From positions 1 through 59,431 of the forward strand of contig JAKBZR010000007.1 in assembly GCA_021842405.1 (NCBI GenBank): a stretch of 59,431 nucleotides of DNA, given 5' to 3'. Shown here piece by piece: positions 18,919 to 39,938 of the stretch (the first letter of the stretch is position 1; every line of letters begins with the position of its first letter). The DNA comes from a bacterium (lineage in GTDB: Bacteria > Armatimonadota > Chthonomonadetes > Chthonomonadales > JAMCWF01). A program made the translations under genes and the position numbers. Below the pieces are notes generated by a model that had not been told where the DNA came from, searched no databases, and worked only from the letters and a program-made list of their open reading frames with translations.

Positions 18919-21837
18919 TCATAGCCGACCCCACCAAGCTCCCGGCTCGGCAAGCGGCTTCCCGGACAAACCAGCCGGTAGAGCCCAGATGCACATATTG
19001 CTGTAGTAATCGGAACCCCACACCGGATCGCCGTTAGCCGAGGAGACGTTGAAGTACTGGTTCCAGACCATGTTGTGGGCGCAGAGGTTGGCGTAGGCGC
19101 GTTCTGCCGCCGGCAGCCCGATTCGCGGCCGACCGGCATAGAGTGCGGTGGTGGCGAAATTCCACACCTCACCCGGAGACGAATCGAGGGATTGATTCTG
19201 GCCGCTCGGATCGGGTCGGCCGTCCGGCAGAACCCCGTTTACCGCTCCAACCGCAGTGGCCGCCATGTTAAGCCGCTGCACGCTCTCAACCACCGATTCC
19301 AGGTGGGACTTCGGCACGATATCTCCTAATCCGAGCAGTCTTGCGTACATTTCGCCGATAAGCTGATCGGCCAGGCAGCTTTCGGAAACTCGGTTATGAG
19401 ACGGCTGGTTATAGAGTCGATAGTAGCGGCCGTTCCATAGCTTGGCCTCGAAATCCGCCTGACCCCGTGTAAAATCCGCCTGCCATCGGGCCGCCCGCTT
19501 TAGGTCGCCCATCTTTTGAGCCATCGCGGTTGCCGCCTTCAGCGCGGCCAAATCTATCGAGGCCACGTAGGGACTGGTGCCCCACCACGGCCAGATATCG
19601 TAGTATTGATTGGCGGGCCAGCCGGTATCGCTGCCGGGAGCGTCGTTCACCAGCCCATCGCCATCAAGGATCAAACTGTTTCGAAAATCCATCGCCCTTT
19701 TCACATGAGGCCACATATCGCTCAGGAAGCGCCGGTTGCCGGTATAAAGGTAGTCCCGCCAGACCATCAGTATCCATTCGTTGGTCACGATGGGGCGCTG
19801 GAGGTGAAACATCGGGCTGGCGATACCGAGCGGCGAGCCGAAGCCGAACGGGATTTCACCCTGCGGACTTTGAAACTGGGCAAACTCCCGCATCACCGGT
19901 AATTCCAGCTTCGGAAACAGCATCAGCAGCGGAAATGAGCCGTTAAACCGACAGACCAGCGTCTCGGTAATCGGGCAGCCGGTGAAGCTCTCCGAGTGGT
20001 AGAATCGGCCGTCCTCAAGCCAGAGGGTATTTCGCGCCAGCGAATAGAGGCTGTTGATTAACCCATCCTGCAACCAACCCGGGATCGGCGCGGCGTAAAT
20101 CCGCTCCTGCCAGCTTATGATCTTCTTTTCAATTGCGGGCGCGCGAGGGGTAACCCACTCCGCGACCGCCTGCGCATTCTCAAACCATTTGGTATACCGA
20201 TGGCGGAGCGGTTGCCCATCCGAGCTGGTTGCGCTCGGGAAATACCACGCCAGCGTGAAGGTGATCGTCGCCGCCTGCCCCGGCCGTAAAACTCGATCGG
20301 CGTAGAGCCGCCCATCCCCGGTCTCCTTTTCGATCGAGTGGCCGAGCTGCCAACCTCTGCCGGCGGCCGTTATAGCGTAGCCGTCTGCGCTGTTCGGCCG
20401 TCCCAGCCAAAGCCCGCTGCCGCCGCTGATCAAAAAGGGCCGCCAAACCGGCTGCTCGGACGGCGTCGTGGCCAGGCGGCAGGGCGTGCTCTCCATCCGG
20501 CCGAAGGAATCGCGCACCGTTGGCCAGGCGCCGATCAGAAAACCTTCGGGCAGAGTGAGAGGTTTCAGCTTTGCATGGAAAGCTCCTTCCCCCCAAGAGA
20601 CAAGTTCACTCGTGGTGGGATCGTAACGGATGGTGTTCTGCTCGGATTGGTCGGGTCCGCCCACATCGAAATTAACGAAATAGCCGAACTGGACATGATG
20701 AAGTGGAGCGCCGCCCCGGTCGAGCAGAGTGAACGTTCGCCGGATCGTGCCGGAAGCGGTCACTTGGGTTTCGATCCGAACTTCGATTCCTAGTTCGGAA
20801 TTCACTAGATTTACGTTCGGGTAACTCCCAGCCTCGGCGCGCTTGTCCAGGTCAAGGCCAATCCGTTTCGTCATTTCGCCGGGCGCATAGGATATGCCGA
20901 CGTAATGAGCATCGCCGTTGCGCTCGAATTTGTACCCAAAAAGAATTTGACCGATCGTGGGAGCGCCGTCTACCAGCCCCGATTCGCGCTGATAGGCTTC
21001 CCAATTAAAACCACCATTTTCATCCAAAATGAAATCGGTAAGGGGCAGTGCTTTTTCGCGTCCGGCCGATGATCCAGATATAGATTGGGTGGCAAGATGC
21101 TCCAGTGAAACGGACCACTCCGAGTTCGGGGCGATTTCAGATTTTAACCAGTATAGCGCGCCGGCCACGTTGCCGGATGCGCAGAGGGAATCGGGTAAGT
21201 TACCGGGCCAGCGCAGCGCCAGTCTGACGTTTTGGTTCATCCGAGTGGGATTGTGTACATTGAATCGGAAGATCGCAGCCGGAGCGCCGCTCAAACGATA
21301 GTTCCCGGGAACGAAGGGCGACATGGCGCGCAGAGTCACTCGGACAGGATAAGCCGCGGAGCCGTAATCCATGTCCACCATCGGATAGTGTCCCCAGTAA
21401 CGGGAGGGCGATTGCCCGCCTGCCGTTCCAATCAGCGGATGGAGCGGCGGCATTTTATCATTGACTGTGCCGTCGGCTGCCTCTGGCGTTGCGCCGAACT
21501 CGAAACCGGCATCGGTTGGCGGTGCCGGTGCAAGCCAGTTGTTCTCCAATGTCGCGCGCCCGAATGTGCCGTCCGGATTGAGGTCCAGGTAGCCGGTGCC
21601 CAGCCCCCCCAGTGGAACCGCGCTGAAGTTGTCAGTTGCACCGATCCAGCGGCCGGTAACCTTCATTGAATAGCCACTTGGCTGAAATCGTTGAAAGAGC
21701 TTCCCCTTTGCCGCAGTATGAGGAACGGATCCCGCTGTCGCCGCCGATAGTGCCATCAGAGCAAACACCCCATTTCTCATCGCCGTTATCGAAATTCCAA
21801 CCCAAAAAATATCTCTCACCACCATCCTAAAAGGCAT
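18919..21837 (-). CDS. GH116 (GBA2-like) glycoside hydrolase with an internal insertion; start may be 21780
   Basis: Motifs VPLGGLGTG, SPFVPGN, DGDGL, NQYYDIW, LWNGRYY and DQLIG. Confidence 0.82.
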   Translation of the reverse strand: MPFRMVVRDIFWVGISITAMRNGVFALMALSAATAGSVPHTAAKGKLFQRFQPSGYSMKVTGRWIGATDNFSAVPLGGLGTGYLDLNPDGTFGRATLENNWLAPAPPTDAGFEFGATPEAADGTVNDKMPPLHPLIGTAGGQSPSRYWGHYPMVDMDYGSAAYPVRVTLRAMSPFVPGNYRLSGAPAAIFRFNVHNPTRMNQNVRLALRWPGNLPDSLCASGNVAGALYWLKSEIAPNSEWSVSLEHLATQSISGSSAGREKALPLTDFILDENGGFNWEAYQRESGLVDGAPTIGQILFGYKFERNGDAHYVGISYAPGEMTKRIGLDLDKRAEAGSYPNVNLVNSELGIEVRIETQVTASGTIRRTFTLLDRGGAPLHHVQFGYFVNFDVGGPDQSEQNTIRYDPTTSELVSWGEGAFHAKLKPLTLPEGFLIGAWPTVRDSFGRMESTPCRLATTPSEQPVWRPFLISGGSGLWLGRPNSADGYAITAAGRGWQLGHSIEKETGDGRLYADRVLRPGQAATITFTLAWYFPSATSSDGQPLRHRYTKWFENAQAVAEWVTPRAPAIEKKIISWQERIYAAPIPGWLQDGLINSLYSLARNTLWLEDGRFYHSESFTGCPITETLVCRFNGSFPLLMLFPKLELPVMREFAQFQSPQGEIPFGFGSPLGIASPMFHLQRPIVTNEWILMVWRDYLYTGNRRFLSDMWPHVKRAMDFRNSLILDGDGLVNDAPGSDTGWPANQYYDIWPWWGTSPYVASIDLAALKAATAMAQKMGDLKRAARWQADFTRGQADFEAKLWNGRYYRLYNQPSHNRVSESCLADQLIGEMYARLLGLGDIVPKSHLESVVESVQRLNMAATAVGAVNGVLPDGRPDPSGQNQSLDSSPGEVWNFATTALYAGRPRIGLPAAERAYANLCAHNMVWNQYFNVSSANGDPVWGSDYYSNMCIWALPAGLSGKPLAEPGAWWGRL

Positions 21838-21880
21838 CCTCCCTCAGGGCTTGATGATAAAAGGCCGTTCGCCCTTTCAG

Positions 21881-22122
21881 GAGGGTGTTGAAAAATACGA
21901 TGCTACCAACCGCATCGTCATTCCAGGCCCGCAGAGCGAAATACCGGAATCCAGAGCATCAGCATTTCTACGTCTCGTTTGGCAAAGGGCTGGATTCCCG
22001 CCTTCGCCTGCCTGCGGCCTGCCCCTGCCTGCGCCAAGCCCAGCGCGGCAGGCAGGTGTTGCAGACAGGTAGGCAGGCGGGAATGACGAAATGGGAGGAT
22101 CCAGCGATTTTTCAACAACTTC
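21881..22122. repeat. Family B TIR repeat element, copy B1, with triple-nested micro-hairpins
   Basis: Ends GAGGGTGTTGAAAAAT ... ATTTTTCAACAACTTC. Two inverted GTCATTCC...GGAATCCAG modules inside. Confidence 0.88.
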
Positions 22123-22144
22123 TTAATCCTTCCGTTGCAATCGC

Positions 22145-23152
22145 CTATTGAACCGCCGCCGCCGCATACTCCCGGAACAGCTTCAGGTAGAGATGATAGT
22201 CCTCCAACGAGACTCCAGGCGGGGTCTGATGATCCACCGAAGGGATATAGTATCCGCTGCGCATTACCGGCATCAACCGCTCGAACTCGGCCCGGATTGC
22301 GCCCTCACCACGATGCATCACCGTTTTGTCGAAAGCGCCGACCATCTTCCATTTGGGATGCCGACTGCGGACTCGGTTTACATCAACGCCCGCCATCCGC
22401 TCCAGCGGCAAAATTCCCTCCAGCCCCACCTCCTCAAACCACTGGATGAGCGGCTCGACGTTGCCGTCGCTGTCAATCATAGGAATGATGCCCCGCCTCT
22501 TCAGCTCCGGCACCACCTGTCGGTAGTAGGGCGCCATAAACTCGTCGTACTGCTCCTTGGATATCATCGGCCCGTGATTGTAGGACATATCTTCACCGAA
22601 GGTCATAAAATCAGGGGTGCAGATGGTGCCGAACTCCTCAAGGCAGCGCAAGGCATAACCGACCTGATCCTGGTTGATTCGGTGAATGAGTTGGGGCTGG
22701 TCAAAAAAGCTGTATAGGTGCGGCTCGATGCCTAGAAGCTCCCTCGGCCACCAGAAAAAGCCGCTGAAGGTGATCCAGATTACGGCATTTCCTTGCGCCT
22801 GATCATCGGCCCGCCTTTTCCACTCCTCCCGATCAAATGGAATCGGATCCGGATAGAGATAGGGCCTCATCGCTTCGTAATCGGCCTCGTTCTCGATCCA
22901 GCTTCCCTGGTGGCCGGAGCCGGGCCGTTTTTGAACGGCGCCGGGCATGATCTGTGGAAACCAGAGCTGATAGTCCACATCCAGATCAAAATGGCGCTTG
23001 ATGGCAATCCAGTCCAGGTTTGGATCAAGCCCTTCATCACGCCAGCGATAGATGGTTTTGTCCCACCAGGTCGCCCACTCCATCAAAGGTAACCGGTCAG
23101 CCGGCATTTGACCGGACATCACTTTTAGAAAGCGAGACCTTACCGTCTCCAC
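22145..23152 (-). CDS. Uroporphyrinogen decarboxylase (UroD/MtaA/CmuA) family protein
   Basis: Motifs EDMSYNHGPMIS, DSDGNV, GAFDK and YIPSVDHQTPPGVSLEDY. Confidence 0.85.
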   Translation of the reverse strand: METVRSRFLKVMSGQMPADRLPLMEWATWWDKTIYRWRDEGLDPNLDWIAIKRHFDLDVDYQLWFPQIMPGAVQKRPGSGHQGSWIENEADYEAMRPYLYPDPIPFDREEWKRRADDQAQGNAVIWITFSGFFWWPRELLGIEPHLYSFFDQPQLIHRINQDQVGYALRCLEEFGTICTPDFMTFGEDMSYNHGPMISKEQYDEFMAPYYRQVVPELKRRGIIPMIDSDGNVEPLIQWFEEVGLEGILPLERMAGVDVNRVRSRHPKWKMVGAFDKTVMHRGEGAIRAEFERLMPVMRSGYYIPSVDHQTPPGVSLEDYHLYLKLFREYAAAAVQ

Positions 23153-26351: not shown

Positions 26352-26487
26352 GCAGATGTTGAAAAAACCGTTAACACCCACCGGGTCGTCATTCCGCCTG
26401 CCTGTGCGCCTGCCTGAGCAGACAGGTGCCCGCACGCAGACAGGGGGCTGCAAAGCGGAGGATTCCGGTGAATTTTTCAACAACCTC
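26352..26487. repeat. Family B TIR repeat element, copy B2, with doubly nested micro-hairpins
   Basis: GATGTTGAAAAAA ... TTTTTCAACAACCTC, with a GTCATTCCG module inside. Confidence 0.85.
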
Positions 26488-31623: not shown

Positions 31624-32247
31624 CTATAGAGTTTGCAAGAATTTTTTAAGCGGTTTAAAGACGGAACTATCCAGATTCCAGTAACCACTTTTCCCCGTCG
31701 CCTCGCCTACCAGTAGACCCGGTTCCTTCCGAGAAGCCAAAAAAGTATGCAACCGGGCCTTGTCTGCATTTTTTGGTAGCGCGGATGACTTTTTTAAGCA
31801 ATCAAGATATTGGTGGACGCATGGGATTGCGGAATCGTCCGATCTTGCCACTGCCTGCCAGCAGAGCGTCTCCAACATTCCCGGGTTTTGGCAATCCGGC
31901 AAAATAAAAACCGATATATTCGGGTCGCCGTCAACCATTTCGCTCGGGTGGGAAGGCACCGCAAAACCGCTCGCTTTCAGCGCATCACAAACCGACTGGA
32001 AAGCCGAGCCCATATCCAATTCAGCGTCACGAATGACGCCAAGTGAGTTGACATTCATTGACCGATAACTAGAACTGGCTTTTAGGGATTTCAGATATTT
32101 ACGAAATTGTGTTATCCCACCAAAATCCAGGATTTGAATGTCAGCTTGTTTTTCTATGTGCACACACAATTTATCGAAAAATATTTTTTCATCTTTGCCT
32201 TCCACTAGCACGATCTTAGGACGTGTGACCACTTCCGGGTCGGGCAT
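31624..32247 (-). CDS. DUF3226 family TOPRIM-like protein
   Basis: Motifs VLVEGKDE, GG, GVIRDAE, FILPD..NPGMLETL and KARLHTFLA. Confidence 0.8.
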   Translation of the reverse strand: MPDPEVVTRPKIVLVEGKDEKIFFDKLCVHIEKQADIQILDFGGITQFRKYLKSLKASSSYRSMNVNSLGVIRDAELDMGSAFQSVCDALKASGFAVPSHPSEMVDGDPNISVFILPDCQNPGMLETLCWQAVARSDDSAIPCVHQYLDCLKKSSALPKNADKARLHTFLASRKEPGLLVGEATGKSGYWNLDSSVFKPLKKFLQTL

Positions 32248-32248
32248 A

Positions 32249-33355
32249 TCACCGCACCTCCAGGTTACTGGAGATGGCGGTTTCTATCATTTCCTGGTCA
32301 TAAACGATAGCATCAACGTCCTCTTTTATGTTATCCAAACGAATCACCCGAAGATCGTTGGGATCGGCTTCCTTAAAAGCCTCGTGGGCGGCGCAAATAC
32401 ATTCCCAGCTATGGGTGGTGGCGAATATCTGCAAATCGTGATCTTTCGCCGCTTGATTGATCGCTTTCCATACGTTCTTCATCGTGGAATGATGAAGTCC
32501 GTTTTCCACCTCGTCTATGAGCACGATTCCCTTTTCCGCCTGCGTTATCGCCAAAATAATCGAAGTGAGGCGCACCATTCCCTGTCCCATCAAGGGTAAT
32601 GGGATTAGACGCTCAAGGCCAATATCACCGTAGAGCATCGGGGTTTGTCCCATCAATAAAACGGAAAGTTGTTTCAGCCTTTTCTCCAATATTTTCAGCG
32701 GCTCGATAACCTCATCAATGCGTCCCACCAGCGCTAAGCTGCTATATATCTGCACATATTCATTCGTTAAGCGATTTGAGGCACCCATAAGGCGGGTTAA
32801 AGGCATAAGTGGCAACTTACCTTGACTAGTTGCAGTTTCAGTCGGCGTAATCTTAATATGAGATTCGTAAGCCTCATTATTAAAATCCTTGAAAACAAGT
32901 TTTATTTCCCATAAGCCTTTATCGGTGCTAAGAGAAGTGGTTGGCTTTGAAAGGTTCTCGGAAGTTGGTATGCTCTCCCTTACAATACCGCTCACTTGCC
33001 TTGTCGTCATAACCATGTCTTGTTGAGTTAAATATATTTCAAGTGACCGTCTCTTTTTGTCATCATTTTGGATAATCAATTGAATCGGTTCGTTAGAAGC
33101 GTCGCTGTGAAACAGTGAGCGGCAGTTTCCTACCATATCATCCGAGGGAGTTGGAAAAGTAAGAGGTATGCCTCGAAAGCCATTTATATTAGCAACAATT
33201 TGAAGATTATTTCCTGCCATGTGCAAATAAATCGCTTCCAATAATGCCGTCTTGCCGACGTTGTTGGATCCCATGATCAAGTTCACGCGAGCGAACGGCT
33301 CAATCTTTATATCACGGAAACAGCGAAAGTTTTTTATCTCAAAAGATTCCAGCAT
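32249..33355 (-). CDS. AAA_15/AAA_21 ABC-type ATPase (AbiEii/OLD-like)
   Basis: IKNFRCF, Walker A GSNNVGKT, signature-like MGQG, Walker B LIDEVENGLH and H-loop TTHS. Confidence 0.9.
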   Translation of the reverse strand: MLESFEIKNFRCFRDIKIEPFARVNLIMGSNNVGKTALLEAIYLHMAGNNLQIVANINGFRGIPLTFPTPSDDMVGNCRSLFHSDASNEPIQLIIQNDDKKRRSLEIYLTQQDMVMTTRQVSGIVRESIPTSENLSKPTTSLSTDKGLWEIKLVFKDFNNEAYESHIKITPTETATSQGKLPLMPLTRLMGASNRLTNEYVQIYSSLALVGRIDEVIEPLKILEKRLKQLSVLLMGQTPMLYGDIGLERLIPLPLMGQGMVRLTSIILAITQAEKGIVLIDEVENGLHHSTMKNVWKAINQAAKDHDLQIFATTHSWECICAAHEAFKEADPNDLRVIRLDNIKEDVDAIVYDQEMIETAISSNLEVR

Positions 33356-37937: not shown

Positions 37938-38073
37938 AGTTTCCTATCCTTTACCAAAATAAATTATGAATAATCCCGCCTTCAGAGAAAATCGAAGGGC
38001 CGGCCGCATCCCGCAAATCACCATCAAAACCTTCGGGCGGAGTTGATGGGTAATTCGGCATTTGCTTTAATAA

Positions 38074-38266
38074 GAGGTTGTTGAAAAGGTCGCTGAAGCC
38101 TGCCGCTTCGTCATTCCCGCATGGCTTCACTCCAGTGGAGTGGATGGCGGGAATCCAGTCCCAAGTCTACCGGCAGGCAAGAATGCTATTATTCTGGATT
38201 CCGGGTTCCGCTTTGCGGCCCCGGAAAGACGACCTTGTGGGCGTTATGGTACTTTTCAACATCCTC
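38074..38266. repeat. Family B TIR repeat element, copy B3
   Basis: GAGGTTGTTGAAAAG ... CTTTTCAACATCCTC. Contains GTCATTCCCGC...GCGGGAATCCAG and CTGGATTCC modules. Confidence 0.85.
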
Positions 38267-39773: not shown

Positions 39774-39938
39774 GTGATTATTGAAAAACTAGATAAAGCA
39801 TACCGCTTCGTCATTCCCGCCTGCCTACCGCAGGCAGGCGAAAGCGGGAATCCAGTCCGATGCTGGTGTTCTGGATTCCATGTCCCGCTTCGCGGTCCCA
39901 GAATAACGACGTGGGGGTATTACAGACATTCAACACCA
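39774..39938. repeat. Family B TIR repeat element, copy B4, with a single micro-hairpin insert
   Basis: GATTATTGAAAAA ... TTCAACACC. Contains GTCATTCCCG[CCTGCCTACCGCAGGCAGG]CGAAAGCGGGAATCCAG. Confidence 0.82.

Follow-up and report, generated by a model that had tools for sequence, protein, structure and literature searches.

Transposable elements of the IS200/IS605 type move by 'peel and paste', with recognition of single-strand hairpins and polar insertion 3' of a short target without target duplication; a Y1 TnpA is required, the target is a tetra- or pentanucleotide and the hairpins are subterminal. Repetitive extragenic palindromes (REPs) are described in passages of PMC3733652 as imperfect palindromes of 20-40 bp that are present in many copies, mostly outside genes, and that multiply in lineage-specific bursts; the same passages place some of them within palindromes (in T. 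roseum, A. variabilis and H. neapolitanus) and some in frame inside genes. SDR5 of the Nostocaceae, of 21 nt, sits between bases 3 and 4 of HIP1 (passages in PMC4390886 and PMC13756078), a passage in PMC5861425 reports no SDR-like repeats outside the Nostocaceae among HIP1-rich cyanobacteria, and the SDR repeats of heterocystous cyanobacteria have a further citing passage in PMC3116915. Since some REPs lie in palindromes or genes and SDR5 lies in HIP1, tiny palindromic movers without target duplication are a known kind. Our subject is a family of such palindromes, the CCTG...CAGG units, in a 59,431-nt stretch of an Armatimonadota genome (positions 1 to 59,431 of contig JAKBZR010000007.1 in GenBank assembly GCA_021842405.1; 'the window' below), in which an earlier note on this DNA had seen units inserted inside one another. 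That note knew of no named system at this size; this is wrong, the REPs and SDR5 just cited being in print (PMC3733652; PMC4390886, PMC13756078). Our reading, to which we give a probability of about 0.6, is that the units are very small mobile palindromes, non-autonomous and specific to this lineage, that form one family and are moved as folded single strands by an enzyme acting in trans. That discrete units were inserted repeatedly is very probable; the enzyme-mediated single-strand route, which we infer, falls a little short of an even chance.

The assembly (G000; 3.51 Mb in 174 contigs, 54.5% G+C, 97.4% complete), of which the window is contig C147, was compared with 300 other genomes of the phylum and with the sole same-genus genome compared, G001 (1.2 Mb, 64% complete, ~85% nucleotide identity over 950 kb). 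The invariant ends of the units read CCTG(C/T)CTG...CAG(A/G)CAGG, which is two CCTG repeats and their complement; the centre is variable and simple units measure 18-33 nt. The pattern CCTGYCTG-N2-16-CAGRCAGG has 76 matches in G000 and the same pattern reversed, the control, has none. Any match at all occurs in 66 of the 300 phylum genomes, with a maximum of 6 per genome, and G001 has three, one of them in the middle of a host element of the kind seen in G000. A genome-wide scan of the kind suggested in the earlier note reveals an enriched, lineage-specific family, and this CCTG...CAGG family expanded in the present lineage after its split from the sister species. With looser ends G000 holds 89 simple units of 44 distinct sequences, and 106 blocks. 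Identical copies recur in different surroundings: the 18-nt unit has 14 exact copies in 13 different 8+8-nt flank contexts, the 30-nt unit eight identical copies with six flank pairs, and the 19-nt unit found at window position 39820 has 11 exact copies with seven flank pairs, five of the copies being at the same host site.

Precise insertion was approached in three independent ways. For each block the 30+30 nt around it were joined and searched in G000, an ungapped match spanning the junction counting as an empty site; paralogous empty sites were found for 51 of the 106 blocks, across at least nine repeat families. The second was an unbiased indel screen for any 8-90-nt segment between two exact 12-mers that are adjacent elsewhere in the genome. 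It returned 932 events, 790 of them non-tandem; terminal inverted repeats of 4 nt or more were present in 27, of which 23 start with CCTG and end with CAGG. Junction ambiguity of the screened events is 0-2 nt, and in the two events with no ambiguity the inserted segment runs exactly from CCTG to CAGG, so that target duplication is absent; nor was a duplication of fixed length found among the screened junctions. Together with one orthologous empty site (below), the 51 paralogous empty sites and the 23 exact events uphold insertion without target duplication as first proposed.

The third way was a count of host repeats, designated H1-H9, empty and filled, by anchors tolerating one substitution each. 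H1, of NTS type, is empty/CCTG-filled 91/8 times in G000 and 46/0 times in G001, and H2 27/6 and 10/0 times; for the other families counted no copies were found in G001, the G000 figures being 5/15 for H3 (23 copies carry some insert, of which 15 are strict CCTG...CAGG), 7/2 for H4, 93/2 for H5, 6/1 for H6 and 3/3 for H7. H7 is a ~60-nt promoter-like repeat starting GGAACGTGTCAAGG and lying upstream of different genes (copies at C89 25151-25278, C91, C174, C166 12853-13011, C111 1358, C70 1839 and C131 2875); three copies at contig ends carry an identical 30-nt unit at the 5' edge of the hairpin loop, and one copy is empty with 60/60 identical flanking bases. The idea that H7 is the end of an insertion sequence was rejected, since it is a promoter-like repeat ahead of different genes. 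The orthologous empty site concerns a coding sequence: at C158 32745-32774 a 30-nt unit sits in frame, adding 10 residues to the Pro-rich linker of a 590-aa open reading frame for a membrane protein with N-terminal Cys-rich motifs, and exactly those 30 bases are absent from the G001 orthologue. Units can therefore also alter proteins.

The window offers three sites (Table 1), at all of which the coordinates and text of the earlier note proved exact. Removal of a unit, said there to restore a perfect hairpin at 39820-39838, yields in each case a sequence present elsewhere in the genome. At the deepest site the whole 71-nt block 22007-22077 is an exact insertion relative to empty hosts, and the joined flanks of the right arm (block b26) matched 98 paralogous empty sites. 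The level-2 insert, 22018-22069, is an event of the k-mer screen with exact flanks common to filled but unnested copies, and its 19-nt unit occurs unsplit in three genome copies in three contexts. The level-3 unit has a paralogue with one mismatch at C132 8629. Every intermediate is at hand: the bare host hairpin in 91 copies, the host with the first unit in five same-site copies, the form with levels 1 and 2 but not 3 at C31 4934-4971, and the three-level composite at window 22007-22077, at C132 8608-8678 and, with a degenerate outer arm, at C90 10362-10421, the latter two having flanks that differ from those of the window copy, and point differences. A parallel series exists for the site at 26397 (block b27, 33 empty paralogues), with 27 empty copies of H2, H2 plus the 30-nt unit on C60, C95, C123 and C132, and H2 plus both units in the window, at C107 22862 and at C152 440. 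Three insertions, one after another, produced the nest at 22007-22077, so that self-insertion in successive rounds, as the earlier note had it, is borne out by the presence of each intermediate. Nest depths were read by eye; automatic regular-expression peeling gave untidy partitions.

Table 1. Units and host hairpins at the three sites (window coordinates)
Feature	Position	Strand	Remarks
Host element, ~240-nt palindromic intergenic repeat	21885..22125		head-to-head pair of CGTC-tagged hairpins, inverted ends GTTGAAAAAT / ATTTTTCAAC
Left arm of host, CGTC-tagged hairpin of longer, H2-like type	21916..21954	+	free of CCTG units
Right arm of host, NTS/CGTC-1-type hairpin, stem ATTCCCGC	21990..22088	-	stem-loop split by 71-nt nest
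Level-1 unit, 19 nt, reverse complement of 39820-39838	22007..22077	-	split into 22007-22017 and 22070-22077
Level-2 insert, 52 nt, CCTG...CAGG	22018..22069	+	19-nt unit split into 22018-22023 and 22057-22069
Level-3 unit, 33 nt, innermost hairpin	22024..22056	+	k-mer screen event, junction ambiguity 0
30-nt-type unit in H2-type CGTC hairpin	26397..26444	+	host arms 26385-26396 and 26445-26468; split by 18-nt unit
18-nt unit nested in 30-nt-type unit	26409..26426	+	14 exact genome copies
Host NTS-type hairpin	39809..39855	+	with the unit removed, fits published NTS consensus CGTCATTCCCGCGMAVGCGGGAATCYRG
19-nt CCTG...CAGG unit, single insertion	39820..39838	+	exact event, 224 empty matches

The simplest site is the third, where the unit splits CGTCATTCCCG / CGAAAGCGGGAATCCAG and the hairpin without it is ATTCCCGC-GAAA-GCGGGAAT with a CGTC head and a CCAG tail. 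As DNA the element at 21880-22125 folds at -62 kcal/mol (z -5.3), and 21990-22087 as single-stranded DNA at -33.8 kcal/mol (z -4.4). The element sits between two minus-strand genes, one GH116-like (18922-21837) and one URO-D-like (22148-23152). A promoter and terminator scan of 21700-22300 gave no signal above shuffles, and an Rfam scan of the whole window has a tRNA as its sole match.

Not all composites are pristine. Half-composites at C152 11954, C12 1497, C54 11818, C33 2112, C144 35662 and C5 35049 fit deletion between direct repeats made by nesting. The outer unit at C146 12762 has arms that are exact complements of each other and seems to have been palindromised, one arm perhaps serving as template for the other. 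A common NTS variant with a long loop of ~28 nt (C5 45692, C11 8079, C18 9719, C22 10475) occurs in one asymmetric and two perfectly symmetric forms, which points to template switching within hairpins, and at C55 12521-12551 the left arm has four tandem CCTG and the right arm two CAGG, which looks like tetranucleotide slippage within a unit. From the half-composites, C146, the long-loop forms and C55 we infer that slippage and template switching act in this genome, secondarily. Local slippage or template switching had been offered in advance as grounds for abandoning the insertion idea; some composites did arise in this way, but as secondary changes only.

What does a unit require of its target? 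The 103 blocks considered fall into 53 flank groups. The orientation of a unit was taken from a conserved asymmetry, in which C at position 5 of the left arm faces A in the right arm; this gave 33 scorable flank groups. The clearest feature of a site is G at -1, in 23 of the 33 (base frequency 0.27, binomial p 4.5e-7); T at +1 occurs in 15 (p 0.005). Both counts overstate independence, as several flank groups have their left half in common. Sites lie in CGTC-REP/NTS hairpins, in other mosaic repeat modules, including non-palindromic ones, in other units and in one coding linker. Many are inside hairpins, not all, and the proposal that the units target hairpin DNA is not supported as a rule. 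In a crude minimum-free-energy fold test on reconstructed empty sites the junction was hairpin-enclosed in 24/33 groups vs 243/300 random positions, a metric that does not discriminate. Relative to local GC skew 44 of 69 units share one configuration (Fisher p 0.03), a weak hint as the copies are not independent.

The host hairpins are themselves known repeats, of CGTC-tagged REP or NTS-SRM type, the hairpin 39809-39855 minus 39820-39838 being a case in point. The NTS motifs of PMC11893778 correspond to what Di Nocera et al. 2013 (PMC3733652) call the CGTC-1 REP / dRS3 family. On contig C11 a single-domain GIY-YIG gene of 97 aa (20401-20691; PF01541 61.6 bits at 20416-20634) is bracketed by 10 NTS-type hairpins, three upstream and seven downstream, within ~1 kb (C11:20260-21280). 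ATTCC[CG]...GGAAT hairpins are present at 73 of 80 related GIY-YIG loci from many phyla, typically adjoining the gene. The C11 locus matches the published Ssn-NTS association (PMC11893778), an already-known system previously unnoted for this genome. Nearby, a small DUF559 (Vsr-like) nuclease gene (C11:22469-22786) has on either side hairpins that read CCCTCCCC-loop-GGGGAGGG and belong to the H5 family, of which the genome has 93 empty copies; such hairpins occur at 10 of 30 DUF559 loci sampled across the phylum, several directly at gene ends, and this may be a second nuclease-hairpin partnership. The earlier note had raised the question of whether GIY-YIG or DUF559 genes are flanked by CCTG units: the genes are there, and what flanks them is the host hairpin families.

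Against this background the units resemble those of REP/REPIN-RAYT systems in being short, high-copy, mainly extragenic palindromes that multiplied in a lineage-specific burst without target duplication, with one coding insertion seen. They differ in lacking an unpaired GTAG or CGTC tag, the conserved letters being the paired CCTG/CAGG ends; in being smaller, from 18 nt, and nested in one another, apparently instead of forming side-by-side dimers; and in the absence of a RAYT gene match in G000. Neighbouring units are nested or overlapping, and pairs 150-3000 nt apart show no regular spacing, as judged with no dedicated dimer statistic. With SDRs the units share very small size, precise insertion and the lack of a known enzyme; SDR5 has one defined 8-nt target, whereas the CCTG units have 53 flank groups with a preference for G at -1 and, weakly, for T at +1. 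The sequences are unrelated and the phylum is different. The SDR4-6 repeats, attributed to Elhai et al. in 2008, are said to sit inside one another. As to NTS/SRM-Ssn (Chenal et al. 2025, PMC11893778), it is the host hairpins and not the CCTG units that are of NTS type, and from this system it is clear that a single-strand nuclease other than Y1 can be cognate to hairpin repeats. The CCTG units share no NTS sequence and do not flank the GIY-YIG gene; moreover SsnA is described there as cutting a few nucleotides upstream of the hairpin and not inside the stem, whereas the unit insertion point is inside the stem. For an exact cut at the stem foot IS200/IS605, with its palindrome-associated miniature derivatives, would be the best mechanistic analogy (see also the discussion in PMC11893778). 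It differs in that G000 has no Y1 TnpA or TnpB match, that one base is strongly preferred and that the CCTG hairpin is terminal. Miniature inverted-repeat transposable elements of DDE type differ in that CCTG junction ambiguity is 0-2 nt (0 in two events), with no fixed-length duplication.

Distinctive here are the paired CCTG/CAGG ends without a GTAG/CGTC tag, the lack of a RAYT match, three-level self-nesting with all intermediates and insertion into Ssn-related hairpins. Full-text literature searches for nested or CCTG palindromes in bacteria gave no description of such units, the supplements of PMC11893778 and PMC3733652, which may list loop-enlarged variants, lying outside their coverage; a search for Armatimonadota with REP found no paper. 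In term searches the word 'nested' is absent from PMC3733652, and 'nested' and 'inserted' are absent from PMC11893778.

On our reading a unit would move as a folded single strand, be cut at the foot of its stem and be joined 3' of a G, cutting and joining being the work of a structure- and sequence-specific nuclease or transposase acting in trans, presumably not a Y1/RAYT of the assembled genome. After nesting, the repeated termini would constitute direct repeats between which slippage could delete half-units, and copying from arm to arm could turn some outer hairpins into perfect palindromes. A bolder version holds that these are the smallest self-nesting transposable units yet seen outside the cyanobacteria: a polar single-strand hairpin element with only (CCTG)2/(CAGG)2 termini, excised exactly where the stem begins and rejoined 3' of G by an enzyme outside both the Y1-HUH and the DDE classes (perhaps a small nuclease that recognises structure and works in trans, as Ssn does for NTS), and young enough to be caught moving, with identical copies and a burst since the ~85%-identity sister. 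Taken whole, that version is doubtful.

Several results weigh against mobility of this kind. A six-frame search of the assembly returned no match to PF01797 (Y1/RAYT), a search that found matches in 6 of 14 control genomes; the suggestion of an HUH/RAYT-type enzyme accordingly finds no candidate there. PF01548 (IS110-type), PF07282 (TnpB) and PF00078 (RT) also had no matches, PF00239 (resolvase) had one weak fragment, and no open reading frame in the genome is bracketed by CCTG units. The 1-2-nt identity (G) at most junctions is also what microhomology-mediated template switching would give. The sister genome contributes little: nearly the whole of G001 was compared, a counterpart of any kind exists for 24 of the 106 blocks, and the orthologous empty site at C158 is the only one. 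Six intergenic counterparts that were inspected either are without the entire host element or show another mosaic there, and are therefore uninformative at the level of the unit, so that the comparison with relatives proposed in the earlier note was productive at C158 and nowhere in these six. Whole host elements are usually absent from orthologous G001 intergenic regions. Spanning G001 matches at C113 1013 and C35 30276 were set aside as conserved coding sequence, not units. Several flank groups share the same left half and many filled copies probably go back to few insertions that multiplied along with the host repeat, so that copies outnumber independent events. Population data add no movement either. 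The sequencing runs with this DNA come from four samples, mine-drainage metagenomes of one study that is possibly the source of the assembly; among their Logan contigs (k=31) none bridges 22032-22061, 26422 or 39830, the breaks lying inside each unit, and no filled/empty polymorphism is seen within the population. A joint that skips 33 nt (22023>22057) was considered as an empty allele and rejected, its shorter side having 24 matching letters and fitting the C31 paralogue. Metagenome contigs around the neighbouring gene have a best match of 74% amino-acid identity, and so offer no close strain.

The main rival, though unlikely, dispenses with a dedicated enzyme. A nascent strand would stall at a hairpin, switch through 1-2 nt of microhomology to a distant CCTG hairpin, copy it and return, giving a templated insertion without target duplication. 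The junctions accommodate such copy-choice readily, being ambiguous by 1-2 nt in most events and having at -1 an excess of G, which is the unit's last base, and the transposase search without a match suits it as well. Arm-to-arm copying does occur here, at C146 12762 and in the two symmetric derivatives of the asymmetric long-loop NTS, as does (CCTG)n slippage at C55 12521. Yet every one of the 23 screened events has exact boundaries, as do both cases of zero ambiguity, with no donor flank seen carried over; one hairpin family only behaves so, accounting for 23 of 27 hairpin-type insertions, though the genome is full of other hairpins; and the excess of T at +1 is left unexplained.

It is improbable, with a slim chance only, that the units are modules of mosaic intergenic repeats like BIMEs or NIMEs, shuffled by recombination or gene conversion at shared 8-nt termini and so passengers without mobility of their own. 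Most copies do lie within the larger repeat families H1-H9, G000 and G001 differ in the presence of whole host elements, composites are often chimeric or halved, and Neisseria CGTC-1 elements are described in a passage of PMC3733652 as interleaved with other repeat families in mosaic regions. Identical units nevertheless occur in unrelated unique contexts and in one coding sequence, empty and filled hosts differ by the unit alone with up to 60/60 identical flanking bases (H7), and nested forms require insertion, not exchange.

Slimmer still is the chance that the direction was the reverse, complex nested hairpins being ancestral and simpler copies arising by precise excision of palindromes. 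Palindromes are deletion-prone, deletions between repeated termini are evident, and H3 is in its majority filled (5 empty, 15-23 filled); on the other side, empty H1 and H2 are the large majority in G000 and the sole state in G001 (56/56) and in the NTS consensus of PMC11893778, the same unit appears in unrelated hosts, and flanking direct repeats measure only 0-2 nt. An assembly artefact at inverted repeats of a metagenome-assembled genome is hardly credible: there are 174 contigs and the Logan contigs of the four samples break inside each window unit without a bridge, but the three-level nest was assembled three separate times, with flanks that differ and with point differences; each simpler intermediate is found assembled at another place; 8-nt arms fall well short of the assembler k; and in the four samples both halves of every window locus recur with 0 mismatches (at the focal site, 21500-22032 and 22061 onwards).

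Mobile palindromes, as we read the units, bear on an open question, namely how REP-like palindromes spread without a RAYT. This genome is a clean natural experiment, with one short, exact-ended family, a recent burst and the empty, single, double and triple states of one site, alongside a sister species in which the hosts are present with almost no units; the insertion chemistry is therefore testable with oligonucleotides. Ssn-related hairpins, which belong to a system recognised only recently, can be reshaped by another and smaller element.

The genes of the window are ordinary housekeeping ones, with no transposase among them. On the minus strand at 31627-33355 lies a gene pair, DUF3226 with an OLD-like TOPRIM domain and an AAA_15/AAA_21 ATPase, that resembles an OLD-family or Gabija-like defence pair. 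Between 37984 and 38617 the Logan contigs of each of the four runs add up to a depth ~60x that of the adjoining bins (2114 vs ~35 in X1), which is the mark of a very high-copy repeat cluster, and at 38071-38232 there are many joints and loose ends among the Logan contigs.

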